64,000 nt of DNA. Source: a virus (taxonomy: Duplodnaviria > Heunggongvirae > Uroviricota > Caudoviricetes). Below the pieces are notes generated by a model. That model ran no database searches. It was not told where the DNA came from and saw nothing but the letters and a program-made list of their open reading frames with translations. The DNA is taken from the IMG/VR virus record IMGVR_UViG_2799113095_000002; one strand, given 5' to 3'. Numbering within the stretch: position 1 is the first letter of the stretch; each line of letters begins with the position of its first letter. Position numbers and translations under genes: made by a program. Of this stretch, positions 2,284 through 62,683 are shown piece after piece.

Positions 2284-2303
2284 TTGGAGGGTGTGCTGAT
2301 CGG

Positions 2304-4124
2304 TCAAAAGATGGTCCCTTCGCCGAGGAAGTGGGACAGGGTTGTCCAAACGGCCTGCAACGCACGAAGACCCCGCGCTGCGGGGTCTTCTTTGTCGTTG
2401 TCGTCGCCGATCGCGAGGGACACAGTTACCGGGTCTTGGCGGGACCATGTCCGCTTTATCGCGGTGATCTGGTCCGTGAAGATGATTCCGTGCTGCTCGA
2501 ACCCGGCCCGGTCACCGAGCCCAACGTCTACGTCGATGGCGTGGGGTCGTCCATTGACCACCTTGACCGTGAAGCCTTGCCAGGCACGGGTTTTGTAGTG
2601 GCCTACGCGGAGCGTCACGACACCGGAGAGGGTGTAGGCGGTGCCGCCGCCCTTCTCGAAATGCTCCTGCCAGGCCATGTCACCGGCCCATAAAGCTCGA
2701 GTTGGATCGGTGAACCGCATCCACGCCAGCAACGTATTGTCCAGCTGGCCTTGGTACAGGTTGTCCAAGCCTTCTGTGCCTTGAGCTTGGCCGTAGAACG
2801 CGATGGTCTGGGCTAGTTGCGATAGCGCATATCGGATAGCAAACGTCTGGGCTTGGTTGACGATCGCAGGCGACCGCGAGCCCGTCATGATCGTCTTGAC
2901 CGGCCCCTTGTGCTGTCTTCGCTCGGACTCGATGATCCCGCTGAATTGGCCGTCGTACCAGATGGTCTTTGGCTTCTCCGGTGCGACGCCAAAGAGCTTG
3001 CGGAACAGAGGATCTGTCTCGCCGTCCTGGTTCTCGTCCAGGTTGATCAGCGTCTCCGTGATCATGTCGTCCAACGTGGCGCCGATGAGGTTGATGACGC
3101 CGTCTACGGCGGTGCCTGTCGGGCCGGTGACGCCGGACTTGTCCTCGATGGCGAAGACGATGCAGTTCCGGTGGGGGCGGGTGGCCTGGTCTACGAAGTC
3201 CTCGGCGACGGTTCCCCGGGCGATGTCCACGAGTTCGGTGTGCGGGGAGTCTTCGTCCTCTTCCAGCCATGTGTAGGCACGGAATCCGCAGCCCGCGTCC
3301 TTGAGCATGTCGTCCATTGCGGAGTGCCAGTCGGTCCACGCGGAGCCGATGACGGAGAGTCTGGATTGGTCAAGCAGCGGGTTGACGAACGCGACTTGCA
3401 GCGGCCACGACAGCGGATCCAGTCCGGTGAGTCCGCCGTTGAGCCATGAGAACGGGTTGAAGATGTTGGTCGGGATCGACAGCAGCGGGAAGAACAGTCG
3501 CGCCAGGTTGATGAACATGGAGGCGGAGAGGATGGTGCGGGTGTTGCCCGGAAGCACCCACATCTTGGGCAGCTGGACCTCGGGTGGGAAGATCGGATTC
3601 GCTGCGAACAGAAGGTTTTTCGCGTGCTGCCGGTTGCTGATGGCCTCCAGCTCAAGCGTGTGAATGCCGGAGCTGTCGCGCTTGGCGTTGATCCCGGTGA
3701 TCTTCCCGCCCCATCGGGTTCGCCATGTTGGCGCTGTCGGGTTGGGGTCCACGACCAGGTGGAGGTCTTCGTGGATCTTCGTCTGGTGGAGGATGAAGTC
3801 GGTCAGCCAGTTCTCGTACCGGAGAACAACATTGGCTTGGCCGGAGTCGGACCACATCTCCTCCACTGAGGCCATCCGCTCGCCCGCGATCTGGGCGACC
3901 GGCTTCATGTTCTTGTCGAACAGGCGGAGCATCGGGCGCTGCCGGGCGGAGGCCTCGATGATGTCGCGGCGGCCCTTTACGTACCGGAACTGCGACATGG
4001 GGTCGCTGGGGTCTGGCTTCTCCTTCTCAGCGATGACCCGTTTGAACTGGTCGTTCATCCAGCGGGTGAACTCCAGCGGCGCCGTTACCAGTCCGGTATC
4101 GACGCCGTCGAGGAGGCTGCTCAT
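2304..4124 (-). CDS. minor tail protein (606 aa)
   Basis: Long ORF with non-biased composition directly downstream of the post-TMP gene. Size and position match siphophage minor tail or tip proteins. Confidence 0.55.
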   Translation of the reverse strand: MSSLLDGVDTGLVTAPLEFTRWMNDQFKRVIAEKEKPDPSDPMSQFRYVKGRRDIIEASARQRPMLRLFDKNMKPVAQIAGERMASVEEMWSDSGQANVVLRYENWLTDFILHQTKIHEDLHLVVDPNPTAPTWRTRWGGKITGINAKRDSSGIHTLELEAISNRQHAKNLLFAANPIFPPEVQLPKMWVLPGNTRTILSASMFINLARLFFPLLSIPTNIFNPFSWLNGGLTGLDPLSWPLQVAFVNPLLDQSRLSVIGSAWTDWHSAMDDMLKDAGCGFRAYTWLEEDEDSPHTELVDIARGTVAEDFVDQATRPHRNCIVFAIEDKSGVTGPTGTAVDGVINLIGATLDDMITETLINLDENQDGETDPLFRKLFGVAPEKPKTIWYDGQFSGIIESERRQHKGPVKTIMTGSRSPAIVNQAQTFAIRYALSQLAQTIAFYGQAQGTEGLDNLYQGQLDNTLLAWMRFTDPTRALWAGDMAWQEHFEKGGGTAYTLSGVVTLRVGHYKTRAWQGFTVKVVNGRPHAIDVDVGLGDRAGFEQHGIIFTDQITAIKRTWSRQDPVTVSLAIGDDNDKEDPAARGLRALQAVWTTLSHFLGEGTIF

Positions 4125-5134: not shown

Positions 5135-8100
5135 TCACGGTCGCGGCAGTCCTGACGCGTAGGTGCGGGAGCGTGCGTTCTGCTCGGTGTGTATCTCGGA
5201 TTTCAGTGCAGCGGGGTCCATTCCCACGTTCCCGGTGATGTTGATGGACTGATCGACGCTCGGCGGTGCCTGTGTCTGGCTGTTGGGCAAGAAGTCGCTT
5301 ACCTGCGGGAGCACTGACGCGATGGTGTCGCCTGCTGACGAGATGCCTCCGCCGTCGCCGAAGTTCATGCCGCTGAGGCCGCCGTCTTCGCTGCCGAGTG
5401 GGCCTCCGGCGAGGCCTGGGAAATTGCCCCGCTGCGGGCCGCCGAAGGCGTTCTTCGCCAGGCTGCCGAGGTAGTTCGCGCCTCCGGTGAAGAGCTTCCA
5501 GATGCCCCAATCCATTGGGTTGCTGAATATCTCGCCGTCGAAACCGAGGGCGTCCATGGCGCCGGAGAGCATGTCCTTCGCGAAGCTCTGTCCATCGGGT
5601 CCACTCCCCTTACTTCCCTTGTTGGCAGTGAACTTGCCTCGCTGTGCTTCGCCGAGGTCGTCACGGGCATCCCCTGCTTCGCGACGTGCCTTTGCGGCGT
5701 CGTTCTTGGCCTTATCGACCGCGTTCTGGGCCTGCATGACTTCCAGATCAGTTGCAGCCGCTGTGAGTTCCCGCTGCTTGGCTTCGGCTTCCTTGACGCG
5801 CAGATCAGCGTCTTTCACCCTCTGATCGGCGTCGGTGACACGCTCCTGCGCTTCCCGGACCTGCTTCGCATCTGGCCGGTAGTAGCCCGCGGTGCCGTCG
5901 TCGTCATAACCGGGAGTGGCGGGCATCCGCTGGTAGCCGTAGCCGCTGACTCCACCGCCACCACCTCCAAGACGGCTGTACGCGGCAGACGCAGCGCCAC
6001 TCTTGGACTGGATCTCCGTCTTGTATGCCTGCCGGCCACCGGAGTAGGCCGCCTCGGCTGAGGCTGCACCGGGCGCCTGCTGGAGCCAAAAGATGTCCTT
6101 CCAGATGTCCTTGGATGAGCCTCCGCTACTGCGCTTTTCATCAAGGCGGTTGAAGAACTCCCCGATGTTCTTGTTGGGGTCGTCGCGGCCGACGTAGGAG
6201 GTGTCCTGCTGGAACACGCCGTGCCATGCTCCGCCCCCACCAGAGGCTTTCGGGTTCAGGCCGGACTCTTGCATCGCGGTGGACAGCACCGCGACTGCCT
6301 CGTCTTGGCTGTACCCGCGACGTGTTGCCTCCCCGAGGATCGCCGAGGCAACGTCATCTGGGCTGGATTCCGGAGTCAGCTGACCGAGGCCCACGGACTG
6401 CTGCTGTTGCCGCCCCCCACCCGGCATCTGCCCATAGCTGCCGATCTCGTGCAGGGCGGCCACATGGATGTGGTCCCCGTGCTGCTTCATCGTGGATTCG
6501 CCGTAGATGCGGCGTGCAGCTTGGCCTTCGGCGTGTTCGCCGTTGACGTTGTACCAAACCTTCTGCGGGTCATCGAAGATGATCTGTGCGAGCTGGTCAC
6601 GCATAGACCAGAGCGCATCCAGGTTCCGGCGGGACGGATCAACGTCGATGGCCATGCCCTTGGGGTGGTAGCCGCCGTCTACGCCGTGATCGGTCTTGGC
6701 GCTGGTGAGTACCGCGCTCGGGTTTGATTCGCGCAGAGCCCGCAGGATGGACAGGTTTACCGTGCCGCCACCCATCCGGTTGAGCTCATCCTGGGAGACG
6801 TTGTTGAAGCCGCCCTGGTCGAACACGCCGAGCATCTGGCCGGTCTTGGCCCAGATGTCGATGGAGCGCTTCCCGCCCCTTATGGGTATGAATGCCTCAC
6901 CGCCTGTGGATGGTTCGGCCCACTGCACCAGCCCGGCGCCAGCGACTGGTGGCTGGAACATCGCGGTGCGGGGTAGCTTTCCGCCCGCGAACGACGCAAC
7001 CGAATCCCACACGTCGTAGATGCCGCCCCTGGCTCGGGGGGCGGCAGGCGGCGGCAACATCAGGGTGCTCCAGTCGCCCGGCGGTGGTGAGGAGGCGGGG
7101 GCGGGTGCTGTGATGTTCTTCTTGAAGTTGTCCCAATCCTCCTGTGCCTGCTTGGTATCCACGGTGACGGGGACTTCGAGCTTCTTGCCGCCTTGCTTCT
7201 GCCGCCACGCGTCGAGGGTCTTCTGGCCCTCTTCGGTGTTGGCGTTCACCTCGAACTTGCCGTCAGGCAGCTCCTTGACCTGGAGGCCGATCTTGGCGAG
7301 TTTCTCGGTGACCTCAGGGGCGTTCGAGTCGATGTAGACGGTCGTCTTGTCGTCACCGAGGGATACCTTTGCCTTGCCGAGCTTTTCGGTGAACTTGAGT
7401 GCTTCGGCGGTCTGGTTACCGGCCTCATCGAGCTTTTTGTTCAGCTCGTCAGCACCGCTGTTGGCGGCGTCCTTCCACTTCTTTGCCTTCTCGAACAGGC
7501 TGTCCGGTCCCGACTGCCAGGCAAAGAAGTCTTGCGCGCGTTTGAAATTCTGCTGTGCCTTGTCGTCGTTTCCGAGGACCTGGTCCCAGACGCCGCGCAG
7601 CTGCATCCATGTGCCGGCCACGTCGCCTGCGGCGGCTATGATGTCGCCGACCGCTGTCATCATGTCGGCAGCGAAGATGATGACGTGCCGCCCGGCGTCT
7701 ACCGCGCCCTCGGCGATGAGCGAGAAGAACTTCACGATGTCGGATTGGTGCTCGCTCACCCAATCGCCTAGACCCCCAAGGGCTTCGTTCGTGAAGTCGA
7801 AAACCTCGCTGGAGAGGGGCTGCAAAGCGCCAGCGGCCTTGTTCTTGAGGATCTGCCACTGCTGCGCGAAGTCATCGGTGGCGTCCACGTCTTCCTGGAT
7901 CGTGGTGCCGGTATGCGACAGCGCCTCATCGAGCTTCTTGACATCGAAGACTCCACGCCGGATTGCATCCACGAACTGCAACCCACCTCGGCCGCCAAAT
8001 AGCTTGTTACCGAGGTTGATTGCTCCTGCCTCATCGCCTACGTCGATGAGCCGCTGAATCTCGTTGGTCAGAGTGCGCAACGCCTCGGGTCCGCTCTGCC

Positions 8101-23390: not shown

Positions 23391-23773
23391 GCTGACGCCG
23401 CCACGTACACACGCCCTATGACGCGCGGCAGCACCTCGACGGGGATGTCCTCACTGCCGGCCACCACGAACGCGTCCGCGTTGCCCCGGTAGTAGCCGCC
23501 GGTACGCGCCGACATGAAGTGGGCGGTGCCTCCCCACACGTGGTGCACGCGCATATCGCCGACGCTGGTACGGGTGGACTCGATTTCAGGCTGGGCGAGG
23601 TGTCCATCCTCGATGAGGGACCGCATCGCGGATAGCGCTTCCTCGTGGCGCTGGGCAAGGTAGATCACCCGGCGCTGGTGACGGAGCTCGGCAGCGACCA
23701 ACTCGAGTACGGCGTATCGCGCAGCCTTGGGATCGGGTGCGTCGATGGTTATGACGCCGGTTGGGGCGGTCAT
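23387..23773 (-). CDS. hypothetical protein
   Basis: 128-aa ORF; 4-nt overlap with its neighbours. Confidence 0.4.
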   Translation of the reverse strand: MTAPTGVITIDAPDPKAARYAVLELVAAELRHQRRVIYLAQRHEEALSAMRSLIEDGHLAQPEIESTRTSVGDMRVHHVWGGTAHFMSARTGGYYRGNADAFVVAGSEDIPVEVLPRVIGRVYVAASA

Positions 23774-24108
23774 GCGGATGGCCCTGCTGCAGTGTTGATC
23801 GAGCCCGAATCATCAATCAGTTCAGCCTCGGTGGCAGGGATGAAGCCGATGACCCCGGATCTGACTGTGCCAACCGGCTGGGGGGCGGTCTTCGCGATGG
23901 AGGCGTTGGACCACATCAGGGCCTCCTCCAGCTTCGTCAACGCGAGGGACTTCTCTCGACCGGGCGGCAGCACCTCATCAAGGCAGTGGGCGATGTGGGC
24001 GCATTGCCCCCGGACGTAGTCGAGCGTGACCACCCGGTCCTCGCCGGAAAGGTGGTAGTTGAAGCGTTGGTCGATGTCTGCACGGCTGCTTGGGGTGGCG
24101 TGACTCAT
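23770..24108 (-). CDS. hypothetical protein
   Basis: ORF 23770..24384 trimmed to MSHATPSSRADIDQ, which has an AGGAGA RBS 8 nt upstream. Confidence 0.4.
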   Translation of the reverse strand: MSHATPSSRADIDQRFNYHLSGEDRVVTLDYVRGQCAHIAHCLDEVLPPGREKSLALTKLEEALMWSNASIAKTAPQPVGTVRSGVIGFIPATEAELIDDSGSINTAAGPSA

Positions 24109-24179
24109 GCTGGGTTCTCCTGTGCTGCTGGGTGTGGGCTGGGTTTCGTCGCTGGGGAGCCAGAGTCGGCGAGTGAGGG

Positions 24180-24680
24180 TCAGACCGGGTTCGGCGCCGG
24201 GTTGTTCTGGAACCACTGCTCGTACTGGGTCTGGGTGAGGAACGGGTAGCGCTGCACCGTGGTCAGATTCACCTCGGTACCGGCGGTCACGGGCGCGATG
24301 ATCGCGAAGTTCCGCCAGGTACGGTCCCCCCGGTTGAACACCACGTTCGAGAAGCTGATGTCGATGAAGAGGTCTGCCGGCCACGCGAGGAGCGCGGTGT
24401 TGGCGAACAGCTTCATCCCGAGAGTGCCGTTGGGGTGGCGGAGGCGGCCTTCATCGAGGCGCCCCTCAAACGTGTCGAGGGCGAAGTCCGTTGGGCGGGG
24501 GTCGTAGTTCGCGGCCCGGAACGCCCAGCCCTGCGGGAGCCGGTACCGGAACAGGACCGTGGCCGTGATGGGGCGGATGTCGGGCTCGTTATCCAGGTCG
24601 GTGTTGCGGTCTGCGACGCCCGCCCACGTGTCGTACATGACCGTGAACGACTGCGGGACAGCGAGACCCGGACCGGTCAC
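24180..24680 (-). CDS. hypothetical protein
   Basis: 166-aa ORF with normal composition. Confidence 0.45.
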   Translation of the reverse strand: MTGPGLAVPQSFTVMYDTWAGVADRNTDLDNEPDIRPITATVLFRYRLPQGWAFRAANYDPRPTDFALDTFEGRLDEGRLRHPNGTLGMKLFANTALLAWPADLFIDISFSNVVFNRGDRTWRNFAIIAPVTAGTEVNLTTVQRYPFLTQTQYEQWFQNNPAPNPV

Positions 24681-29709: not shown

Positions 29710-30182
29710 CACGCCAGCTCCTCGCTTGTGAAGATCAGAGGTGCGAGCTCGCTCCACGCTTGACCAAGGTCACGACGCAGGAGCTCGATAGACCAATTGG
29801 CCGACCAGTCCCGTATCGGTTTCAAAGCCTCACGGGCAGTGGCGTTCATTGCGTCGGTCATCGTCCGGTAGTACGCGGGACCGCCGTCTTCTTCCACCCA
29901 TGCCCGTTGCGTGGCTTTGATAGCAGGGTCAGACATGGGGTTCTCCAGCGTTCCAGCCCTTGAGGCCTCCAGCGCGGCATTAAGCCGTTTGACAGCAGAC
30001 CTTTTCGCGGCCTCGGTTGGTAGTGACTCGTACCGCTTTAGCCATCTAGCGCCTGCCTCCTCCGCCCCTATGGCATCGGCCAGCTCAGCATCGGTGCGTT
30101 GCTCGGGGTCTGGGAAACATTCAAGTTCACGAGCCCGAGCTACGAGCTTGTCTCGGAATGCACTCGATTCCGTCATCGCCAT
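29709..30182 (-). CDS. hypothetical helical protein
   Basis: 157-aa ORF with an Ala/Glu/Arg-rich helical composition. Confidence 0.45.
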   Translation of the reverse strand: MAMTESSAFRDKLVARARELECFPDPEQRTDAELADAIGAEEAGARWLKRYESLPTEAAKRSAVKRLNAALEASRAGTLENPMSDPAIKATQRAWVEEDGGPAYYRTMTDAMNATAREALKPIRDWSANWSIELLRRDLGQAWSELAPLIFTSEELA

Positions 30183-31030
30183 CTACTTCGACTGACGGCG
30201 ATGTTGTGTGCGTTTCGGATCGCGCCGGAGAGTCGGGCTTCGGACCTGGTACCGCGAGTACGCCAGTGCCGCTGGTACATATCAACCAACCACGTGTTGA
30301 TCCGAACCCAGTCCGGGGTATCCGGCAGAGGCTCGGTCGAGATGAAGTGCTCCAGACTCCAGGTCAGATCCGCGAGCCAGCTCTTCACCTCGGGGAGCGA
30401 GGTCTCGCCGCGCCGAACGCGGAGCAGCGCATCACGATGGGCCTTGACCATCGGCAGGTGCAGCTTCCTCTCCGTGACGAGCTGGATACCCTGCATGCCG
30501 AGGCGCAGGGCGTGATACGCGTACTTGGTGTCGAAACCGTACTGTTCGATGAGTTCGGGCCGGTTGGTGTGCCGGTGATGGGTACCTTCGAGTCCTTCAC
30601 GCTGAGAGTTCAAGTAGCTCAAGAACTTCTGTCCAGCCTGCGTGGTGACGAACATCTCCGAGGCTGCCTGAAGTTCGGCGCCGAGTTGGCTTTTCACCGT
30701 CAGCTCATTGTCGGGTATCCAAAGCATCAGCAGCACTGAGGGATTGCCATTGGCGGCCAGCCGTGTCCACTTCCGCAGGCTGTAGACACACAGATCGAGG
30801 TCGCCGGGGCCGGAGCGGGCGCCGTCCGGTTGGGTGCGGTACATGTACTGCTCGAACTTCTCCAAACCGATTACGGCCTCGGGAGGTTCGATGCAGATGC
30901 CCATTTCGTCGCGGTCGTCGGCGCCGGTCGTGACACCATGCAGGCCGGAGCCGACCTGCCCACGAAGAATCGTGTTCTCGTCCGCGATAGCGCGGTGCCG
31001 CTCCGTGCCGTGGCGTGCTTCTGTACTCAC
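30173..31030 (-). CDS. Pol-beta-superfamily nucleotidyltransferase (GS-x9-DDxDE motif) with a roughly 160-aa C-terminal helical domain
   Basis: LRGQVGSGLHGVTTGADDRDEMGICIEP matches the hG[GS]x9-13 Dh[DE] nucleotidyltransferase signature. GTG start overlaps the upstream small ORF stop. Confidence 0.55.
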   Translation of the reverse strand: MSTEARHGTERHRAIADENTILRGQVGSGLHGVTTGADDRDEMGICIEPPEAVIGLEKFEQYMYRTQPDGARSGPGDLDLCVYSLRKWTRLAANGNPSVLLMLWIPDNELTVKSQLGAELQAASEMFVTTQAGQKFLSYLNSQREGLEGTHHRHTNRPELIEQYGFDTKYAYHALRLGMQGIQLVTERKLHLPMVKAHRDALLRVRRGETSLPEVKSWLADLTWSLEHFISTEPLPDTPDWVRINTWLVDMYQRHWRTRGTRSEARLSGAIRNAHNIAVSRSRWR

Positions 31031-31194: not shown

Positions 31195-31415
31195 CATCGG
31201 GAGGTGGCCGTTCTACCGTCGATGATTTTCTGGATGAGTTGGGGGCTGCACTTCACGGCGGTGGCGAGAGTGGCGTGGGTCCACTTCTCGCGCTCGTTCG
31301 TCCAGAGTTCCCGTACGAGCCGGTCGCGCTGGCTTCGGTGCTGGCTGGCGGAGTCGCGCTCTTCCCCGGCCAGCCGGTGGTGCTCGCGGGCTTGCTGTGC
31401 CCTCGGGTCCATCAA
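31194..31415 (-). CDS. small HTH DNA-binding protein
   Basis: C-terminal WTHATLATAVKCSPQLIQKIIDG looks like a helix-turn-helix. Confidence 0.4.
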   Translation of the reverse strand: MMDPRAQQAREHHRLAGEERDSASQHRSQRDRLVRELWTNEREKWTHATLATAVKCSPQLIQKIIDGRTATSR

Positions 31416-31846
31416 CGTCCCCTGATGTCCACGCGGCGGCGGGATATCTTCTCGATCGCGGTGATGGCTTCCTCTCCGGGGTCTTCGATCTCGAAGATGC
31501 CGTGCTCTGCTGCGTCACGGCCTGACTCGAACAGCGGGACAGGGCTCACATATTCGAATGCGGCCTGTACGTCTTCGGGAGACAGCGCGCCCGTGGCCGC
31601 GCCGATGCGTATCGCAAGTAGTTCCTCGCCGCCGTGGCAGCCGACCCAGCCCGCACAAAGCCGGGCCGCTGCGTCGGCGGCGTCCGTCTGGTGGCACAGG
31701 AACAGGCCGGGCGGCTGCTCCGAGGTGGGGCCGTCGTAGGCGATGAGTTTCTGATACTCGGTGGCATGCCACACGCCGCTGGGTACGTCCTCCCGGTAGG
31801 GGCACGACGCGCAGGGGCGCGGCGCGGGGCCGCCGACCCTGCCCAT
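31412..31846 (-). CDS. Cys/His-containing hypothetical protein co-transcribed downstream of rsr
   Basis: CASCPYR...LFLCHQ...CAGWVGCHGG. ATGA overlap with the rsr stop. Confidence 0.45.
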   Translation of the reverse strand: MGRVGGPAPRPCASCPYREDVPSGVWHATEYQKLIAYDGPTSEQPPGLFLCHQTDAADAAARLCAGWVGCHGGEELLAIRIGAATGALSPEDVQAAFEYVSPVPLFESGRDAAEHGIFEIEDPGEEAITAIEKISRRRVDIRGR

Positions 31847-31848
31847 CG

Positions 31849-33549
31849 TTACAGGTCACCTCGGGCGAAGTCCGAGATGAGCTGCGGTACAGCGCTATCG
31901 AACCCGGACACGTCGAGCTGGCGCGGGTCCGAAGGATCTGCGATGGTCTGCCGACCGCCGGTCATCGCGACCACCATCAGGCTGGTGTCCAGGCTGAGCT
32001 TGTTCCGGTACTCGGTGAGAGCCTGGTGCGGGTGGATACCCCCGTACCAGGTCTCGTTGTCGGTGAGGATCACGATGGCGTCGTAGGGGCGAAGCTGCGC
32101 CTTCGCCCAGATCATGGGGAGCGCGCAGTCGGTAGCGCCCATAGGGAGGCCTGCGGTGTATCGGCACACGTCATCGAGGCGGCGGCGCGGCGTGATGTCC
32201 AACTCCGTGATCCCTGATGAGCGGAAGCTCCCACCGGCCCCGGCGGTGAACCCGATGATGTCGTGGTTGGGCTCCACGTTGGCGGTCACCAGTGCGAGCG
32301 CGGCGGCGGCCTCGCGGCACGTCAGCGGCATACCGGAGATCGCGGCGCTCATGGAGCCGGAGATGTCCAGTGCCAGCAGGGTCCGCTTACCCGAGGGCTC
32401 GACGGCGCCGTAGGCGTTGTAGAACGCGGCGTCGAGCGCGTCAACGATGCGGCGGTTCGGAGTCCAGGTGGACTCACCGCGCGCAGAACGCCCAGAGGCA
32501 TAGGTGCGCTGTGCGACAAGGACATTGATCGGGTGGACGCGGCCCTTTCGTAGCCGGTCTGTGTCCTGGAGCTGCGCGGAGACCCGGCTGCCGAGCTGAC
32601 CGTTCAGCACGCCGAGGCGGGTTAGGCGGGGCAGCTGCCGCATGAGGGCGGTCTGCGGGAGGCCGTGCTCGATCAGCGCCTCCCAGATCGCAGGCTCGGT
32701 GAGGGCCTTGTCGGGGAACGCCTCCCACGGTAGGCCGTTGCCCCGGCGGATGATCGCCAGCCACTCGTTGACGGTGGTGGCACGCTGCGCGGCTTCGTAG
32801 TCCGCGATGATGGCAAGCGGGTGCCCGTCAGCCAGTTCCACATTGGGCAGCTTCGGTAGAGCGGGGTTGCGCTCTCCGGCCTTGAGCTGCTCCGGAGTGA
32901 GGAGCGGCTGCTTCCAGTTGTAGTCGTTGAGCCCCTTGCCGACAGCCCAGTTGAACGCCATGCGGCGTGCGGGGTCGCTGGTGGCGGGGCCGCTGAGCCG
33001 GAGCATGTCGCGGTGGGTCCAGCCGTCACGCTGCCGGTACTTGACCAGCTGGTAGGCGAGCCGGTCCACGGGCTTGTCCAGGTACCAGCTGGAGACGGCG
33101 CGCTTCATCGCCGGTCCCCAGCCCCGGAACTGCTCCATGTACTTGGTGAACAGGTACAGGTGGGTGGCGGTGCGCGCGACTCGGGGCAGTGCGGCGGCGG
33201 CGGCACGGCGGCCTTCCACGTTCTCGGAGGCCGAAGCGATAGCGAGCGCGAACAGGGCCGGGTTCTGCTTGGGGGCGCGTCCGGCCTCGGAGACCTCAAC
33301 GATCTTCTGCACGAGGGTGACGGGATCGGTTGCGGCGAGCCGGATCACGACATCGGCGGCGTCGCGGGTGAGGTCCTCGGCGGAGGTGTAGTAGGTGCCG
33401 CCGGTCGTGCCGAGGGTCAGGAATCGGTGGAGCCGGGTCCAGTCGTCGGCCTGGAAGGTGTAGCCCCCGGCGGCGTTCTTGACCTGGCGCGGGTCCGCCT
33501 TCTGGGCCTGAGGGGTGCGCCGCGTGCTGATCGAGGATAGAACGTCCAC
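31849..33549 (-). CDS. rsr: Ro60/Rsr-like ribonucleoprotein (TROVE domain plus C-terminal vWA domain with MIDAS DxSxS)
   Basis: 566 aa. GTG start with an AGGAG RBS 6 nt upstream. vWA MIDAS LLALDISGSMS...T...D. Size and domain order match bacterial Rsr. A Y-RNA-like array lies immediately upstream. Confidence 0.75.
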   Translation of the reverse strand: MDVLSSISTRRTPQAQKADPRQVKNAAGGYTFQADDWTRLHRFLTLGTTGGTYYTSAEDLTRDAADVVIRLAATDPVTLVQKIVEVSEAGRAPKQNPALFALAIASASENVEGRRAAAAALPRVARTATHLYLFTKYMEQFRGWGPAMKRAVSSWYLDKPVDRLAYQLVKYRQRDGWTHRDMLRLSGPATSDPARRMAFNWAVGKGLNDYNWKQPLLTPEQLKAGERNPALPKLPNVELADGHPLAIIADYEAAQRATTVNEWLAIIRRGNGLPWEAFPDKALTEPAIWEALIEHGLPQTALMRQLPRLTRLGVLNGQLGSRVSAQLQDTDRLRKGRVHPINVLVAQRTYASGRSARGESTWTPNRRIVDALDAAFYNAYGAVEPSGKRTLLALDISGSMSAAISGMPLTCREAAAALALVTANVEPNHDIIGFTAGAGGSFRSSGITELDITPRRRLDDVCRYTAGLPMGATDCALPMIWAKAQLRPYDAIVILTDNETWYGGIHPHQALTEYRNKLSLDTSLMVVAMTGGRQTIADPSDPRQLDVSGFDSAVPQLISDFARGDL

Positions 33550-33573: not shown

Positions 33574-33650
33574 GGCGCGGGCGTGTGAGTGACCGCCGGG
33601 GTTCATCCAGTTTCGAGGTTGGGGTAACCGACCGTCGTCCTGCTCGCGCC
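33574..33650 (-). ncRNA. Y-RNA-like module 1 (minimal: conserved 5-prime and 3-prime boxes only, no tRNA-like domain)
   Basis: On the minus strand it carries the shared boxes GYGAGCAGGACG...GGUCGGUUAYC (5-prime) and CCGGUCA...CACACGCCC (3-prime). Terminal GGCGCG/CGCGCC can pair. Confidence 0.45.
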
Positions 33651-33668
33651 AAAAGGGGGTTCGGGGTG

Positions 33669-33787
33669 ATGTGGGCGTGTATGTGCTGACCGGGATTTCG
33701 CTTTTACACCCGCACCGAGGCGCGAGCGACAGGGGTCGAACCTGCATTACCAATTGAGTGATAACCGACCGAGCGTCCTGCTCACAT
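33669..33787 (-). ncRNA. Y-RNA-like module 2 with tRNA-like D-loop and T-arm elements
   Basis: Minus strand: box GUGAGCAGGACGCUCGGUCGGUUAUC, then CUCAAUUGGUAAUG (D-loop-like), CAGGUUCGACCCCUG (T-arm), and 3-prime box CCGGUCAGCACAUACACGCCCAC. Confidence 0.55.
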
Positions 33788-33821
33788 CGAAAAGCTATGG
33801 AGTTATTGATGATTCGCGTAG

Positions 33822-33966
33822 GTGGTGCGGGCGTGTGATTGCTGACCGGTGTTTTAGGTGCTCTACCAAGCTGAGCTATACGGACGCACTACGCGCCCGC
33901 AGCTGGATTTGAACCAGCGACCACCCGCTCCAGATGCGATAACCGATCCTGCGTCCTGCTCACACC
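33822..33966 (-). ncRNA. Y-RNA-like module 3 (YrlA-type): circularly permuted tRNA-like domain flanked by the conserved terminal boxes
   Basis: Minus-strand order: 5-prime box, T-arm GCUGGUUCAAAUCCAGC, closed acceptor hairpin CGGGCGC-GUAGU-GCGUCCG (7 bp), D-arm UAGCUCAGCUUGGUAGAGCA, 3-prime box CCGGUCAGCAAUCACACGCCC. Confidence 0.6.
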
Positions 33967-33986
33967 ATCTACTACGAAGCCTTGGG

Positions 33987-34122
33987 GATGATGCGGGCGT
34001 GTGTGTGCTGACCGGGGGTAAGCGCTCTACCGACTGAGCTACAACCACTTTCGCGGCTGACGGGACTCGAACCCGCGACCTTTCCATTAGAAGTGGTAAC
34101 CGACCTGCGTCCTGCTCGCATC
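33987..34122 (-). ncRNA. Y-RNA-like module 4 (permuted tRNA-like domain)
   Basis: Minus strand: 5-prime box GCGAGCAGGACGCAGGUCGGUUACC, T-arm GCGGGUUCGAGUCCCGU, acceptor-like hairpin, D-arm GUAGCUCAGUCGGUAGAGCGC, 3-prime box CCGGUCAGCACACACACGCCCGC. Confidence 0.6.
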
Positions 34123-34146
34123 ATCAATGTGAAGTTGTATCCGGGA

Positions 34147-34314
34147 TGGCGTGGGCGTGTGAGGTGCTTACCGGCGTTGATCTTGGATCAATGCATTCGG
34201 CCGCTCTGCCACGTTCCGCCCGATGAAAGCCCGAAGCTCTTTCAAGCAGCCCGGCGGGATTCGAACCCGCGATCTGATGATTTTCAGATAACCGACTCGC
34301 GTCCTGCTCACGCC
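34147..34314 (-). ncRNA. Y-RNA-like module 5 (longest; permuted tRNA-like domain with Ser-type D-arm and extra hairpins)
   Basis: Minus strand: 5-prime box GGCGUGAGCAGGACGCGAGUCGGUUAUC, T-arm GCGGGUUCGAAUCCCGC, extended acceptor hairpin, D-arm GGCAGAGCGGCCGAAUGC, hairpin UUGAUCCAAGAUCAA, 3-prime box CACCUCACACGCCCACGCC. Confidence 0.55.
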
Positions 34315-34360: not shown

Positions 34361-34472
34361 CTGTTCAGGGCATATTTTTTGAGGAAATGTTGATTCGCTG
34401 GAAGGTGACTCCCGTACCGGGGAAAGTATGCCGTCGAGGCCCTCGACCTGGCTACCGAATATCGGTGCCAGC

Positions 34473-35222
34473 TCAGTGAGGTACTTCGTCTAGGCCGTTC
34501 TCGCGGAGGGTCGCGGTGACCGCCTCCACGACGCGCGTAGCGGGCCAGTCGTCGGGCGCGGAGATCAGGGTGCCCCCGGCCAGCTCGGTCTTTGTGAGAA
34601 GGTCAACGAGATGGTCAATCTCGCCGACTTCCTTGCTGATCCAGGTGCGGTATCCGGCACCGATCTTCCAATTGTTGCGCCGAGCAAGGCGCATTGCCGC
34701 AAGATCAGTGAGGGTGAAAGTGGCGGGCTGCCAGGTTGAAGCCACAGCGGCGCACACCTTGTCGCCAACCTCGCTAGAGACGCCGCCCGGCGCGGTCTCG
34801 GTCAGGTCGATGTGGAGGTTGTGCGCCGGCAGTCTCCCGCCGAGACCGATAGACCCCGCACCGATGAAGACCTTGGCAGTGATGGCAGGACCGACGCCCT
34901 TCAGGACGATCGAGTACCCCTCCCTGGGGAGAGCATCGCCGCTGGCGCCGTCAGGGAGTGCTTCGCGCACCGGGCAGCTCCGAACGATGTCGGCCAATGC
35001 CTCGCTGGGCCCAGCCCAAGTCTCCCAGTGGTGCCCCTTCGGGATGTCCCACTGCGCGATTCCCAGATCCGTTCCTAGCTGCGTCAGCAGCGCATCGGTG
35101 CGCGCCGCGATCCATTCGGGTGATTCGCCGGTCGCGACCCAGAACGCGTTCACGAACGACTCTCTCGCCCAGACGGGAGACGCGTTGGTTGGCCCGTTCA
35201 CAGCATCGAATTCTACGGTCAT
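34473..35222 (-). CDS. putative immunity protein of the polymorphic toxin system
   Basis: 249-aa ORF whose ATG overlaps the toxin stop (ATGA). Assigned by the toxin/immunity gene-order convention only. Confidence 0.45.
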   Translation of the reverse strand: MTVEFDAVNGPTNASPVWARESFVNAFWVATGESPEWIAARTDALLTQLGTDLGIAQWDIPKGHHWETWAGPSEALADIVRSCPVREALPDGASGDALPREGYSIVLKGVGPAITAKVFIGAGSIGLGGRLPAHNLHIDLTETAPGGVSSEVGDKVCAAVASTWQPATFTLTDLAAMRLARRNNWKIGAGYRTWISKEVGEIDHLVDLLTKTELAGGTLISAPDDWPATRVVEAVTATLRENGLDEVPH

Positions 35223-37102
35223 GGCTTCTCCGGGGTGTAGATCACGTCAACGTCGAGACCGCGGCCCTCTAGCAGATTCCGAATTATCGCTGCGCTCTGT
35301 GGGTTAGCGACGTGCCACTCAAGGCCAGTCTCAGGGGGCAGGACGCGTATCTGTCGCTGAGCCTCTCTGACGAGCTCGTTCTGGATGTTCTCAGTCCACG
35401 GCGCATCTGGACTCTTGATCAGGGGCGTGTAGTTGTGCTTTGCGTCTAGGAACACCTGCTGATTGCCCCGTTCGATGGGTCCGCTGTCGAATCTGACCAC
35501 CTCGCCGGTCTCGGGGTTGGTCATGACGTACTCGGGGATGCGTCCGTCAGGTGTTCGTTCGATACCCGTGATCTGCTCCTGGAAGCCCATCCAGGGCTTG
35601 TCGGGACCACGGTTGACATGCTCCCAACCTGGCGTGGGGTCACCCTTGGTCCAGGTTGCCTCTGGGGTGTGGGGCGGCCACCCACCCGGATGGTGCGGAT
35701 CGCCCGACGTGTAGTGCTGCCCCACGCTGGGGTCGAACTGATCGGGTGTCGGTAGTTGGTGCTGGGTTGGGGGTGGGGAGTGGTCGGCGACCGTGGGCGG
35801 TGGATGGTCTACAACCGGCGCGGGGTGGGTTGCGTCACTCGGGTCTGCGGTGTGCGCTGCGGGTGCTGGTGTGTCATGGAGTGCGCCGGGGCTCGGAAGG
35901 TCCGGGTGCGCGCCCAGGCGTGCAGCGGCGGCTTCTTCGAGTCCAGCGCGTGGCAACAGGCCTTCGGGACCGCCTGCCATTAGCGCCCCGCCATCGACCA
36001 GTTTTTCCCCGAAGTATTGGCCGGGGTTTTCGATGTTGTGCTTGATGCCTTCGGCGATATCGGCGCCCGGCGGGGTGGTCATGTGGTGCTTAAAGGACTC
36101 CCATTCTCGCCTACCGGCCTCTTCATTGGCCTCCCAAAAACCCTTGTCCCCCAACCCAAGACGGTCCCGCAGATCCGTGAACGGCGCAACCAACTTATCG
36201 ACGCCCTTGTCAATGCCCTCGGAAATATCCGTCTTGAAACGCTCGGCAGCCGATGGTTTGTGCTCCTCCGGTGGCTTGTCGTTGCGATTCAGGTAGGTGA
36301 CGCTTTCGCCCAGGCCACCCACCTTGGTCTTGTCGATAGTGTCCTTAGCGAACGGGCCGTACTGCGGGGCATTCGGATCGGCAGCAGCGGTGGCAGCGGT
36401 CGGGGTTGTCGCGGGATTCTTGATGTGCTCCAGCTTGTCGCCGAGCGTCCCGGCACCAGGATCGATGGAGGCCGGATCGGTGGCCTTGGGGTACCAGTCC
36501 TTGTAGAAGTTCGCGGGCTGGGCGCTCGGGTCGCCGGGCTTCGGGGTCGCGGCGTCGCGCAGGGCCTTGCGCCCGTCCACAAGCGCCGTTTTGGGGTTGA
36601 TGCAGCCGGTGATCGTTTGGGCGGTGGCGTCGGCCTGGGTTTTGAGGGTTTGACAGCCCTTCTCCCACTTGGCGACATACTCTTCGATCTGCCGTTGGAT
36701 GTCGGCGACGTGGGCGCGGTTTCGGGCTATCGAGTCATCGCTTTCACCCTCGGCGGGGTGGTAGTCCATCTTGTAGTCCTGAGCGATGGAGACGCCCTGG
36801 TCCTTGTGCGCCAGCACGCTCTCGATGAGGCGTTGGCCGTTGACCAGGGGATCGACCACCTCGTATTGGATGGTGGCGGCAACGAGTTTTCCGCCGTCTT
36901 CGGCGGTGTCGTGGGTGTTATCCGAGCCGTGGCAATCAGTGGATGCAGTGTCATAGGCGGCGTTCGAGGTGCGCCCGGTCCATTCGGTGCCATCGGGAGC
37001 CCCGACCCACCGTTTGTATTCGTCGTAGATTTCCTTGAACTGCCGGGTCTGTGGAAGCCAGGTATCCACCACCGCCATATAGTCATTGGCCTTCTTGGCC
37101 AT
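35219..37102 (-). CDS. polymorphic toxin: N-terminal WXG100-type (T7SS/ESX) secretion domain, long Pro/Thr/His-rich linker, C-terminal PD-(D/E)xK nuclease-like toxin domain
   Basis: ORF 35219..37231 trimmed to MAKKANDYMAVVDTWLPQ (or the GTG 21 nt upstream, which has an AGGGGG RBS). WxG motif KRWVGAPDGTEWTG. C-terminal EYVMTNPETGEVVRFDSGPIERGNQQVFLDAKHNY carries D...D-A-K. Confidence 0.6.
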   Translation of the reverse strand: MAKKANDYMAVVDTWLPQTRQFKEIYDEYKRWVGAPDGTEWTGRTSNAAYDTASTDCHGSDNTHDTAEDGGKLVAATIQYEVVDPLVNGQRLIESVLAHKDQGVSIAQDYKMDYHPAEGESDDSIARNRAHVADIQRQIEEYVAKWEKGCQTLKTQADATAQTITGCINPKTALVDGRKALRDAATPKPGDPSAQPANFYKDWYPKATDPASIDPGAGTLGDKLEHIKNPATTPTAATAAADPNAPQYGPFAKDTIDKTKVGGLGESVTYLNRNDKPPEEHKPSAAERFKTDISEGIDKGVDKLVAPFTDLRDRLGLGDKGFWEANEEAGRREWESFKHHMTTPPGADIAEGIKHNIENPGQYFGEKLVDGGALMAGGPEGLLPRAGLEEAAAARLGAHPDLPSPGALHDTPAPAAHTADPSDATHPAPVVDHPPPTVADHSPPPTQHQLPTPDQFDPSVGQHYTSGDPHHPGGWPPHTPEATWTKGDPTPGWEHVNRGPDKPWMGFQEQITGIERTPDGRIPEYVMTNPETGEVVRFDSGPIERGNQQVFLDAKHNYTPLIKSPDAPWTENIQNELVREAQRQIRVLPPETGLEWHVANPQSAAIIRNLLEGRGLDVDVIYTPEKP

Positions 37103-37136
37103 GAACTCATCCAGTGGCGTCACCACGCGCGTGCCC

Positions 37137-37457
37137 CTATGCCCGCTTCGGTGGCTGATAGATGCTGGGCAGATTGCCGTACCCGGCCGCCAGTGAACTC
37201 TCCGTGATCTTGAAAGCTTGCTGGGCCTCATCAGCGAAATCAGCGATCGTATTCAACCGCGCTGCCCCGATCCGCTTCACATCCGCGATGGCCTTGGACA
37301 CTCCATACAGCGCCGCCAAACCTGGATCAGCACCAGCCGGTGGCGAGACACTGGCCGCCGTGCTCTGCGTCAGCTGACCGGCGAGCGTCCTCAGATGCGG
37401 ACCGAGCTTCCCCAAGGCCGCAAGATCAAACTTGAGAACGTTCTCATCGCCCGACAT
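37137..37457 (-). CDS. small helical protein upstream of the toxin (possible secretion partner or chaperone)
   Basis: ORF 37137..37496 trimmed to MSGDENVLKFDLAALGKL, which has a GAAGGGGG RBS. About 106 aa. 35 nt upstream of the toxin start. Confidence 0.4.
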   Translation of the reverse strand: MSGDENVLKFDLAALGKLGPHLRTLAGQLTQSTAASVSPPAGADPGLAALYGVSKAIADVKRIGAARLNTIADFADEAQQAFKITESSLAAGYGNLPSIYQPPKRA

Positions 37458-37551
37458 GACACCCCCTTCGGCAACCAACTGTGTGATTGCCAGCACACTA
37501 CAGGAGCAGTAGTGGGTTCCGCAGGGGGAGTTGCCAGGGGTGCGGTGTTCG

Positions 37552-38073
37552 CTAGTCGAACAAGGCCAGCTGGCCTACGGGTTCCTCATCGAACTGGAAC
37601 GCCCGACGAACAAGCACCTTCTCCAGGTCGAGTATGCGCCAGTGCTCGGCGCGGGCGGTGTCGTCCTCGGCGGCGGTGGGGTGGTAGCGCTTGCATGGCT
37701 CCGAGTGCTCGTGGCGTGCCTCGTGCTGCCAAGGGCAGTGGCACCAGCCATACTGCGTGAGGTTGAGCGCGTGGCTGTCTTTGCGGCATCGCTCGATCTC
37801 GGCGCGGAGGTCCGCCGGCAGGGCGAGGCCGTACGCGGTGATCCGGGTGACCTTGATCGACAGGATGGGCGTTCCGAACGCCGGGCAGTGGACCTTTCCG
37901 CCGTTGGTGCTGAACCCGCCCCGGAGCCATTCGGGGCCGCCTTCAACGTGGCGCAGCGTGCCGCCCCAGTGGCTCTGGGCTAGGTAGTCTGCGCCTGCCT
38001 TGCTGAGGAGTGCGTCGAGGATCATCCAGCCGCCCATCGCGAACAGGAGCCAGCGTTCTTCTTCGGTCAGCAC
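37552..38073 (-). CDS. Cys/His-rich hypothetical protein
   Basis: 173-aa ORF; contains ...CPAFG...WCHCPWQHEARHEH... Confidence 0.4.
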   Translation of the reverse strand: MLTEEERWLLFAMGGWMILDALLSKAGADYLAQSHWGGTLRHVEGGPEWLRGGFSTNGGKVHCPAFGTPILSIKVTRITAYGLALPADLRAEIERCRKDSHALNLTQYGWCHCPWQHEARHEHSEPCKRYHPTAAEDDTARAEHWRILDLEKVLVRRAFQFDEEPVGQLALFD

Positions 38074-62336: not shown

Positions 62337-62645
62337 ATGAGCGCTATGAGTACGTTGTATTCGGTTCCGAACGAGACCCTGTCCCAGACGGTGGCCCGCC
62401 GAATCCGGGGGCTGCTCGGGGAGAAGCGCATCTCTCAGGCCAAGTTCGCCAAGATGCTGGAGACGAACACCGCGAGCATGTCGCGGCGGCTCTCAGGCGA
62501 GTACCCCATCGACCTGGCTGAGGTTGAAAAGTATGCAGCCGCACTGGGGGTGTCCCCAATGCGGCTGTTGACTGGTCGGCCTGACGGCAGTGGCCCCGAT
62601 GGACCGGATGTGCGCCCGAAGGGATTCGAACCCCTAACCTTCTGA
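62337..62645 (+). CDS. XRE-family HTH immunity repressor whose 3-prime end is fused to host tRNA-Arg sequence (integration-truncated form)
   Basis: HTH TLSQTVARRIRGLLGEKRISQAKFAKMLETNTASMSRRL. The last 11 codons (RPKGFEPLTF, stop) are encoded by the 3-prime half of the tRNA-Arg gene on the opposite strand. Confidence 0.7.
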   Translation: MSAMSTLYSVPNETLSQTVARRIRGLLGEKRISQAKFAKMLETNTASMSRRLSGEYPIDLAEVEKYAAALGVSPMRLLTGRPDGSGPDGPDVRPKGFEPLTF

Positions 62646-62683
62646 TCCGTAGTCAGATGCTCTATCCGTTGAGCTACGGGCGC
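62611..62683 (-). tRNA. tRNA-Arg (anticodon ACG)
   Basis: Minus strand reads GCGCCCGUAGCUCAACGGAUAGAGCAUCUGACUACGGAUCAGAAGGUUAGGGGUUCGAAUCCCUUCGGGCGCA, a cloverleaf with anticodon loop CUACGGA. No encoded CCA. Confidence 0.8.

Follow-up and report, generated by a model that had tools for sequence, protein, structure and literature searches.

Layout of the cassette and its place in the prophage

The window (the whole 64,000-nt stretch of DNA analysed) carries three adjacent minus-strand genes that encode a 106-aa partner protein, a polymorphic toxin and an immunity protein, in that order (Table 1). The partner and toxin genes are separated by 34 nt. The toxin and immunity genes overlap by 4 nt in an ATGA, in which the immunity ATG overlaps the toxin TGA. 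This order of three co-oriented genes is that of the PT-Imm/PEST cassettes (PEST, phage-encoded ESX-secreted toxin). The sequence-only reading had placed all of these genes here, with the 249-aa gene over the toxin stop and the 106-aa gene upstream, and each was present at its position. The rsr gene and the Y-RNA-like array are neighboring context and lie outside the cassette.

The toxin was read from the ATG at 37102, which gives 627 aa. The longest open reading frame (670 aa from 37231) would run into the upstream gene, and public gene calls give 627, 634 or 635 aa. A protein identical to the toxin (P0115) comes from M. abscessus subsp. massiliense. The partner matches PHROG 18870 (E 1.1e-41). 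The alignment begins at residue 17 of a 119-aa frame with a GTG start; the internal Met from which the 106 aa are counted lies 3 residues before this point.

The prophage is ~75.6 kb long and is integrated at a tRNA-Arg gene (62610..62683). Homology to prophiGD43A-5 stops at position 1 of that record, and the 35-bp attachment core at this junction recurs, letter for letter, at the opposite end of the prophage (L017, 6637-6671). The cassette lies 25.2-28.2 kb from the tRNA-Arg junction and ~47-50 kb from the other. Mapping of the core thus puts the cassette inside the prophage, in agreement with the earlier statement that it sits in the middle and not at an attachment-site end. Location of the core at both ends rules out the internal position as an artefact of virion versus prophage coordinates. 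Published PT-Imm/PEST arrangements are close to attR or attL (Dedrick 2021, PMC8092301; Abad 2023, PMC10654092), a linkage that is typical of the family but not strictly defining, and that is absent here. The segment from LysB to the integrase and attR was searched and holds no cassette component. The usual site is empty, and a second, canonical cassette near attR was rejected. Also rejected as a cassette member was the upstream 173-aa gene (37552..38073), an ordinary early gene found in many unrelated prophages ~6-17 kb from the left (attL) end. The cassette has the orientation of the early lytic genes.

Table 1. Features of the cassette and its surroundings in window coordinates (public contig coordinate = 62640 minus window coordinate).
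Feature	Position	Strand	Basis or comment
rsr (Ro60 orthologue)	31849..33549	minus	Pfam TROVE, E 6.8e-50; vWA_Ro60, E 3.5e-56
Five tandem Y-RNA-like units	33576..34311	minus	repeated 5' and 3' motifs
Exchangeable cargo slot of the prophage lineage	34466..37551	.	flank homology, differing contents
Immunity gene, 249 aa	34473..35222	minus	third gene of cassette
Polymorphic toxin gene, 627 aa	35219..37102	minus	second gene of cassette
C-terminal toxin domain, aa 475-627	35222..35680	minus	Tox-REase-5
Tox-REase-5 PD-(D/E)xK core, aa 504-601	35300..35593	minus	Pfam and fold
Candidate catalytic residues	D539 35486..35488; D553 35444..35446; K555 35438..35440	minus	motif
Pro/Thr/His-rich linker, aa 430-505	35588..35813	minus	composition: P 24%, T 11%, H 11%
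Conserved N-terminal secretion region, aa 1 to ~210	36473..37102	minus	homologue conservation
Partner gene, 106 aa	37137..37457	minus	first gene of cassette
Intergenic element upstream of cassette	37458..37551	minus	alignment of window with L029-L031
35-bp attachment core, 3' end of tRNA-Arg	62610..62644	.	junction matching prophiGD43A-5 position 1

Toxin, partner and immunity proteins

The string KRWVGAPDGTEWTG, in which a WxG export signature had been noticed, contains two W-x-G triplets. The conserved one is W41-T-G43 (36974..36982), whose W and G do not vary in any of 120 homologues; conservation of W32-V-G34 is only partial (W in 93/120, G in 69/120). A YxxxD/E export motif is present as Y80-x-x-x-D84 (36851..36865) and is only partly conserved across the family, with Y80 in 83/120 homologues and D or E at position 84 in 50/120. 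The three-part architecture proposed for the toxin stands at the N-terminus and at the nuclease end. The Pro/Thr/His-rich linker is real but shorter than proposed: residues 1 to ~210 are a conserved domain followed by a variable middle region, and only the stretch at ~aa 430-505 has the linker composition.

The N-terminal 210 aa are 85% identical to prophiGD43A-5 gp111, and nucleotide homology to other cassettes (85-88%) stops at ~36466-36470. The 147 homologues that share this N-terminal region carry Tox-REase-5, GH-E, Endonuclea_NS_2, Colicin-DNase, TNT or glutamine-deamidase domains at their C-termini, and the N-terminal ~70% of the toxin is up to 84% identical to proteins bearing other C-terminal domains. 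At least six Pfam toxin domains thus stand behind the same N-terminus, the variable C-terminus of PT-Imm/PEST toxins. The partner has 94% aa identity to prophiGD43A-5 gp112 and ~90% to prophiT46-2 gp94 and prophi58-1 gp83. Its homologues in described prophages are labeled 'WXG motif protein' or 'ESAT6-like protein'. The partner itself has no Trp residue and so is not literally a WXG protein. Searches with Pfam WXG100 (PF06013) matched neither the partner nor the toxin N-terminus, NCBIfam matched none of the three proteins, and PHROGs matched neither the toxin nor the immunity protein.

The C-terminal domain alone matches Tox-REase-5 (PF15648) over profile positions 1-95 of 95 with 26.9 bits against a cut-off of 25, and 39 of 39 homologues match the same profile. 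The full-length toxin scores 23.7 bits, just under the cut-off. The predicted structure is a restriction-endonuclease fold with a conserved D...(D/E)xK. In the RFDSG...FLDAKH core, D539 and K555 do not vary among the 39 homologues, and position 553 is occupied by D or E. These data agree with the PD-(D/E)xK-like core seen in the sequence-only reading: by fold and motif, the domain is a Tox-REase-5 PD-(D/E)xK nuclease with predicted activity. By analogy with TseT, D539, D553 and K555 are probably the catalytic residues. Tox-REase-5 is among the C-terminal motifs listed for M. abscessus prophage toxins (Dedrick 2021, PMC8092301), and polymorphic toxins from 11 records are 47-51% identical (aa) to the present domain. 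The word-indexed homologue search returned only four fragments for the 153-aa domain alone and gave the homologue set with the full-length toxin as query.

The immunity protein has a predicted Imm52/TsiT-like fold and lacks an N-terminal hydrophobic segment. It gave no Pfam match, Imm52 (PF15579) included, at E up to 1, and Imm52 was matched by 4 of 66 immunity homologues with a best E of 0.01. The fold and the place directly downstream of a Tox-REase-5 toxin support its earlier assignment as the cognate immunity gene. Identities of toxin domain and immunity protein co-vary (84/85% in L011, 78/56% in L029 and 47/58% in prophiT46-2), and cassettes with another type of C-terminal domain have no detectable counterpart of either. 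Such co-variation of immunity protein and toxin C-terminus is a feature of PT-Imm/PEST cassettes. M. abscessus contigs also carry the toxin domain and immunity protein, 84-85% identical, behind an unrelated N-terminal domain. The 249-aa protein would act in the cytoplasm and neutralize the nuclease by direct binding.

The atypical position and the 23.7-bit full-length score could be taken as signs of a decayed or inactive remnant stranded by recombination at a non-functional position. This explanation carries next to no weight. The three reading frames are intact, with the toxin and immunity genes coupled through the ATGA, and the catalytic D and K are invariant. In the public assembly collection, 73 indexed blocks contain an identical immunity protein, and toxin domains and immunity proteins still diversify in place inside the slot.

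Relatives among prophage, ESX and type VI systems

The prophages of the drug-refractory pathogen M. abscessus abound in PT-Imm/PEST cassettes, for which an influence on virulence, competition or phage defense is suspected. Megablast with the partner gene and the toxin N-terminus gave 75-88% nt identity to 13 described M. abscessus/chelonae phage or prophage records, in which the matched genes are annotated 'polymorphic toxin' and 'WXG motif protein'. PT-Imm/PEST1 cassettes of prophiGD43A-5 (gp110-112), prophiT46-2 (gp92-94), prophiGD08-3 and prophi57-1 have the same three-gene order, and in prophiT46-2 the C-terminal domain is likewise Tox-REase-5 and the immunity protein is homologous. Two differences were found. 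The usual site of these cassettes is near att whereas the present one has early genes on one side and the Y-RNA/rsr module on the other. The present toxin-domain/immunity allele is also only ~50-58% identical to those of described phages. The WXG-type nuclease toxin with immunity gene recognized from the letters alone thus belongs to a known prophage family (Dedrick 2021; Abad 2023), and on homology and gene order it is an ordinary PEST1-type member.

PEST1-3 have been defined and a PE25/PPE41-like heterodimer predicted for PEST1, and two PEST cassettes gave toxicity with immunity protection in M. smegmatis (Abad 2023, PMC10654092). Lysogenic expression, ESX-dependent export and immunity-relieved toxicity have been shown for other cassettes only (PMC8092301; PMC10654092). 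By analogy with the family, the 106-aa helical protein would pair with the WXG-type N-terminal domain of the toxin. The two may assemble into a helical bundle of the PE/PPE or EsxAB kind, which a host ESX (type VII) system would recognize and export. The C-terminal nuclease would be the toxic activity, and the immunity protein is predicted to bind and neutralize it in the producing cell.

CpnT with EsxE/EsxF and PE25/PPE41 of M. tuberculosis offer a like arrangement, with a helical export domain of WXG type at the N-terminus, a toxic domain at the C-terminus and, as here, a small helical partner gene immediately upstream (PMC10654092). The toxic domain of CpnT is a NAD+ glycohydrolase whereas the present one is a nuclease. 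Unlike the M. tuberculosis ESX systems, the present cassette is phage-borne and has a single upstream partner without a WxG.

The TseT-TsiT pair of the Pseudomonas aeruginosa type VI secretion system (T6SS; PA3907-PA3908, PDB 7dym, 9oz0) has the PD-(D/E)xK core in common with the present toxin, at a sequence identity of only 13-19%. TseT is delivered by PAAR/T6SS, whereas the present toxin has an ESX/type VII WXG-type N-terminal domain. Phmmer and hmmsearch searches of PDB sequences with the toxin, the immunity protein and the family profiles found neither TseT nor TsiT, so the link rests on predicted structures. At the level of predicted fold, both halves of the mycobacterial ESX pair correspond to TseT-TsiT, an illustration of one toxin-antidote module re-used across different secretion systems.

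A cargo slot beside the rsr/Y-RNA module

The cassette fills a slot that runs from the end of the 173-aa early gene, at its stop, to a conserved flank leading into the Y-RNA array. Homology to the siblings L030-L032 on the Y-RNA side begins at 34458-34465, and homology to L032 on the early-gene side stops at 37552. The cargo at this site is different in four sibling prophages, whose Rsr proteins are 93-95% identical. Their cargo consists of other ESX cassettes, the one in L032 lying on the opposite strand. One sibling cassette is 81% identical (nt, over 3.2 kb) to the attR-proximal gp110-112 of prophiGD43A-5, and this homology is confined to the stretch between 11 nt before the first ATG and the immunity stop. 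In prophiGD43A-5 and prophiT37-1, more distant than the siblings but the nearest relatives described, BrnT/BrnA (gp49-50 and gp46-47, respectively) take up the corresponding place between the Y-RNA/rsr module and the early genes that follow. BrnT/BrnA are unrelated proteins on the opposite strand and form a type II toxin-antitoxin pair, not a secreted toxin system. The slot is lineage-specific, with ordinary early genes on one side and the rsr/Y-RNA module on the other. Probably the whole cassette moved into it from the usual site near attR, between the lysis genes and the integrase, after which the toxin-domain and immunity half was probably replaced by recombination within the toxin gene.

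The intergenic element at 37458..37551 is nearly invariant among the internal-slot cassettes. It holds CCTGTAGTGTGCTGGCAATCACA, which includes a TANNNT-type -10-like hexamer, and is a candidate promoter or operator; a scan for sigma-70 consensus promoters found 0 sites. Terminator-like sites were found on the plus strand only, no commoner than in shuffled sequence, and the 156 nt past the immunity stop fold into hairpins without a U-tract (z = -1.5). Homology to canonical-site cassettes begins only ~11-23 nt upstream of the first ATG, so the cassette is without their upstream region, the expected place of a native promoter. With this region not shared and the genes in early-gene orientation, the lysogenic expression usual for the family cannot be assumed.

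The limit of homology to attR cassettes and the same-orientation early genes around the slot would suit an intracellular defense (abortive infection or superinfection exclusion) or a lytic-cycle weapon with the immunity protein as antidote, in place of a mainly exported toxin. BrnT/BrnA, the alternative cargo of relatives, is a classical toxin-antitoxin pair, and prophage-mediated viral defense is one of three open roles for PEST cassettes (Abad 2023, PMC10654092). Such a role is nevertheless improbable. The full secretion apparatus is conserved, with a partner 94% identical to the canonical one and an invariant W41-x-G43, and the near-invariant upstream element suggests that the cassette has its own control region.

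On the same strand, the cassette is followed directly by the Y-RNA-like elements and rsr, to which the sequence-only reading had found it adjacent, and an RlaP 'RNA repair pathway' gene comes after rsr. The contiguity of cassette and array is a shared strand and a gap of ~160 nt, nothing more. The functional link suggested from this arrangement is not supported, because cargo changes while rsr and Y RNAs stay constant. Siblings with a near-identical module differ in cargo, prophiGD43A-5 and prophiT37-1 retain rsr and Y RNAs yet carry BrnT/BrnA, and the closest toxin-domain/immunity copies (82-85% aa) have no rsr near them and occupy conventional sites at prophage ends. The best explanation, which we hold with high confidence as a whole, is a three-gene ESX toxin-immunity cassette in an internal slot of an M. 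abscessus-type prophage, with an adjacency to rsr that appears positional and not functional.

Coupling would make the cassette, the five Y RNAs and rsr one lysogenic operon, or would have the RNA-repair module buffer or respond to toxin damage. It would account for the shared strand and short gap, on which no consensus terminator was found, and for the retention of an ESX cassette beside rsr in at least five sibling prophages. Every cargo seen at this place is a toxin system (Tox-REase-5, a toxin guarded by Tdi1 or, in relatives, the BrnT RNase), the RlaP gene is close by, and some Tox-REase-5 effectors are reported to degrade RNA besides DNA (review PMC9990079). However, all the siblings come from a single prophage lineage, and inheritance without selection can account for the adjacency they share. 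The ESX cassette of L032 and the BrnT/BrnA of relatives are on the opposite strand, and the nearest toxin-immunity homologues are at sites without rsr. Whatever the cargo, the conserved flank is part of the Y-RNA side, and so are its hairpins just past the immunity stop. Ro60 and YrlA-like RNAs are on record from mycobacteriophages, in passages that mention no toxin cassette (PMC4201824). Taken together, coupling is quite unlikely. It is very doubtful that the slot is a dedicated dock for nucleic-acid-damaging toxins, functionally tied to a Ro60/Y-RNA surveillance module. If it were, the module might be co-expressed in lysogens to clear or repair toxin-damaged RNA, or might sense the damage, and this would be the first link of bacterial or phage Ro60/Y RNA with toxin-immunity systems.

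The cassette brings no new mechanism, and its one unusual feature is the internal slot beside the Ro/Y-RNA genes. A whole cassette can occupy either of two sites in related prophages, and the internal one is a cargo slot in which toxin-domain/immunity pairs turn over in place. Pipelines that search for PT-Imm/PEST cassettes only near att junctions would miss the present lineage.

The neighboring array contains five copies each of AGCAGGAYG (5' motif) and ACACGCCC (3' motif), and two of the Y-RNA-like units give sub-threshold matches to Rfam YrlA (E 1.9e-6 and 3.7e-5).

Composition of the cassette

Three closely packed ORFs occupy the minus strand of the window from 34473 to 37457, and a Y-RNA-like array and rsr follow on the same strand. 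The sequence-only reading had described the three genes and their place next to the Y-RNA/rsr unit, and what it says of the sequence is correct. A protein homologue search retrieved an identical toxin, P0115, from M. abscessus subsp. massiliense. By megablast, genes in 13 described phage or prophage records share 75-88% nucleotide identity with the partner gene and with the ~210 opening codons of the toxin gene; the records name the partner 'WXG motif protein' or 'ESAT6-like protein' and the toxin 'polymorphic toxin'. The N-terminal ~70% of the toxin is common to its homologues with up to 84% identity (n = 147), and the C-termini behind it are of the Tox-REase-5, GH-E, Endonuclea_NS_2, Colicin-DNase, TNT and glutamine-deamidase types. 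One N-terminus joined to differing C-terminal toxin domains is what 'polymorphic' denotes. The conserved WxG is W41-T-G43, which is invariant in 120/120 homologues; the adjoining W32-V-G34 is only partly conserved. A Y80-x-x-x-D84 motif is also found in the window toxin, with partial conservation within the family. The C-terminal 153 residues (aa 475-627) score 26.9 bits over the whole Pfam Tox-REase-5 profile (cut-off = 25 bits), and all 39 homologues of the toxin domain match this profile. Residues D539 and K555 are invariant among the toxin-domain homologues, and residue 553 is D or E.

The immunity protein has no match in Pfam, NCBIfam or PHROG. Its 110 homologues include the annotated immunity protein of prophiT46-2, an M. 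abscessus prophage, and every organism-named one is mycobacterial apart from a single frame-fused entry under another organism name. The public assembly collection has 73 blocks in which an identical protein is indexed. The link to Imm52 is marginal by sequence (4 of 66 homologues match, best E = 0.01). The predicted folds of the toxin domain and the immunity protein both match a characterized effector-immunity pair, TseT-TsiT, and this likeness of both halves strongly supports a toxin-immunity reading in which the 249-residue protein would bind and neutralize the toxin. The pairing proposed from sequence is supported and, from the Pfam domain and the fold, sharpened to a Tox-REase-5/Imm52-like pair of a PEST1 cassette.

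The small partner is 94% identical to gp112 of prophiGD43A-5 and has no match to Pfam WXG100. Tryptophan is absent from all five aligned PEST1-type copies, that of the window included, and the names 'WXG motif protein' and 'ESAT6-like', given to its homologues in GenBank phage records, do not describe the sequence. A PE25/PPE41-like heterodimer is predicted for PEST1 partner/toxin pairs (Abad et al. 2023, PMC10654092).

Coordinates of the features (window positions unless another record is named)
Feature	Coordinates	Strand	Remarks
Intergenic element	37458-37551		94 nt; upstream of cassette; contains CCTGTAGTGTGCTGGCAATCACA
Small partner gene	37137..37457	minus	106 aa
Toxin gene	35219..37102	minus	627 aa
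Immunity gene	34473..35222	minus	249 aa; ATG overlaps stop of 627-aa gene (ATGA)
Y-RNA-like array	33576-34311	minus	five tandem units; directly downstream of cassette
rsr	31849..33549	minus	after array; TROVE and vWA_Ro60
DUF6283 gene	31412..31846	minus	after rsr
RlaP gene	30173..31030	minus	after rsr; 'RNA repair pathway DNA polymerase beta family'
ORF with Acb2/Tad1 hairpin domain	23770-24384	minus	PF24729
tRNA-Arg	62610..62683
att core	62610..62644		35 bp
L030 immunity gene	5453-6091		GAD-like and T6SS_Tdi1_C
L031 immunity gene	5444-6088		GAD-like and T6SS_Tdi1_C
L032 inverted cassette	331-3313		IMGVR_UViG_3300031251_000010; EspC-like (PF10824), 751-aa protein with EspA-like TPR repeats (PF23275), 137-aa ORF

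An internal position in the prophage

In M. abscessus prophages, Dedrick et al. (2021, PMC8092301) described 21 PT-Imm arrangements, each near attR or attL and lysogenically expressed, with Tox-REase-5 as one of the C-terminal motifs. Cassette swapping, including that in MabK prophages, was linked to attL or attR (Amarh et al. 2023), and the systems were named PEST by Abad et al. (2023, PMC10654092), who report 1,063 unique prophages that carry them. Neither the kind of system nor its type of toxin domain is therefore new; what differs is the position, a modest twist.

The window is almost wholly prophage. Read in reverse, it aligns colinearly with two MabK prophages of M. abscessus, prophiGD43A-5 and prophiT37-1, at ~77% nucleotide identity. 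Homology to prophiGD43A-5 stops at its position 1, which corresponds to window 62644 within tRNA-Arg. The att core recurs at the far end of the prophage on L017, an IMG/VR contig that overlaps, at 100% identity, public contigs bearing the tail gene of the window. Positions on one public 75.6-kb contig equal 62640 minus the window position. This coordinate rule and the core shared by both ends therefore give a prophage length of about 75.6 kb, with the cassette 25.2-28.2 kb away from the junction at tRNA-Arg and ~47-50 kb away from the opposite one. In the relatives, the annotation places attP within the immunity repressor gene (integration-dependent immunity) and the integrase is at the far (attR) end, as at the right end of prophiGD43A-5 (L023, L024); the window prophage uses the same tRNA-Arg core.

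In prophiGD43A-5 the cassette (gp110-112) lies near attR, flanked by lysis genes and the integrase, whereas the LysB-to-attR segment of the window prophage contains no cassette component and no ORF >400 aa. Where the window prophage has its cassette, the opposite strand of prophiGD43A-5 and prophiT37-1 encodes BrnT/BrnA. The closest immunity alleles (82-85% identical) also reside at conventional prophage-end sites, beside lysis or host genes.

Exchange of cargo among sibling prophages

Four IMG/VR prophages (L029-L032) with Rsr 93-95% identical to that of the window share its flanks. Flank homology reaches window 34458-34465 on one side in three of the four, and in L032 it breaks at window 37552 on the other side too. 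The content between the flanks differs. L029 carries a Tox-REase-5 cassette with a toxin domain 78% and an immunity protein 56% identical to those of the window. L030 and L031 have the window-type partner and toxin N-terminus; their C-terminal domain is another one and their immunity protein belongs to the GAD-like/Tdi1 type, which makes theirs another toxin-immunity pair common to T6SS and ESX delivery. L032 has its EspC-like and EspA-TPR-like genes on the opposite strand, and Pfam gives no match for two other plus-strand genes in its slot (488 and 169 aa). PEST1 components are absent near LysB in all four siblings. Att mapping and this comparison establish that the unusual internal position noted earlier is real, and that it is a lineage-specific exchangeable slot.

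The L030 cassette aligns over its whole length with the attR-proximal gp110-112 of prophiGD43A-5 (81% nucleotide identity over 3.2 kb); the homology begins 11 nt before the first ATG and goes no further than the stop of the immunity gene. The L031 cassette aligns in two pieces at 77-86%. The cassette behaves as a discrete unit, found at two separate locations across related prophages. The gp110-112 toxin is annotated NTox15.

The 94-nt element is almost invariant in four prophages with internal-slot cassettes (that of the window and L029-L031), whose coding DNA on either side has only 85-89% identity. The element includes a -10-like hexamer, TAGTGT, and may be the control region of the cassette at the internal slot. 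Perhaps by coincidence, its 10-mer GCAATCACAC is also part of the 3' stem motif in Y-RNA-like unit three.

The Rsr/Y-RNA neighborhood

The stem motifs of the Y-RNA-like units are AGCAGGAYG...TCGGTTA (5') and CGGTCAGCA...ACACGCCC (3'); AGCAGGAYG and ACACGCCC each occur five times in the array. Only two of the five units match Rfam YrlA, both below the gathering score (E = 1.9e-6 and 3.7e-5). In the homologous array of prophiGD43A-5, a gene annotated 'tRNA-Thr (tgt)' probably represents the tRNA-like module of one YrlA-type RNA. The DUF6283 and RlaP genes beyond rsr extend the RNA-surveillance/RNA-repair neighborhood past rsr and the Y RNAs.

The sequence-only reading had also raised a functional link between the toxin cassette and Rsr/Y RNA. 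The cargo at the slot is a toxin system in every case seen, some Tox-REase-5 effectors are reported to cut RNA (review PMC9990079), and the neighbors Rsr, Y RNAs and RlaP are of RNA-surveillance or RNA-repair type. However, the rsr/Y-RNA module is constant and the cargo varies in type and orientation, the same toxin-immunity pair occurs at prophage-end sites with no rsr nearby, and the conserved flank 3' of the immunity gene's stop, hairpins included, belongs to the Y-RNA side. The comparative evidence goes against coupling, which we consider very improbable; the sequence features, the toxin-immunity pairing and the atypical position stand.

Elsewhere in the window, the Acb2/Tad1 hairpin domain (E = 4.3e-16) marks its ORF as a candidate cyclic-nucleotide signal sponge, i.e., with an anti-CBASS or anti-Thoeris function.
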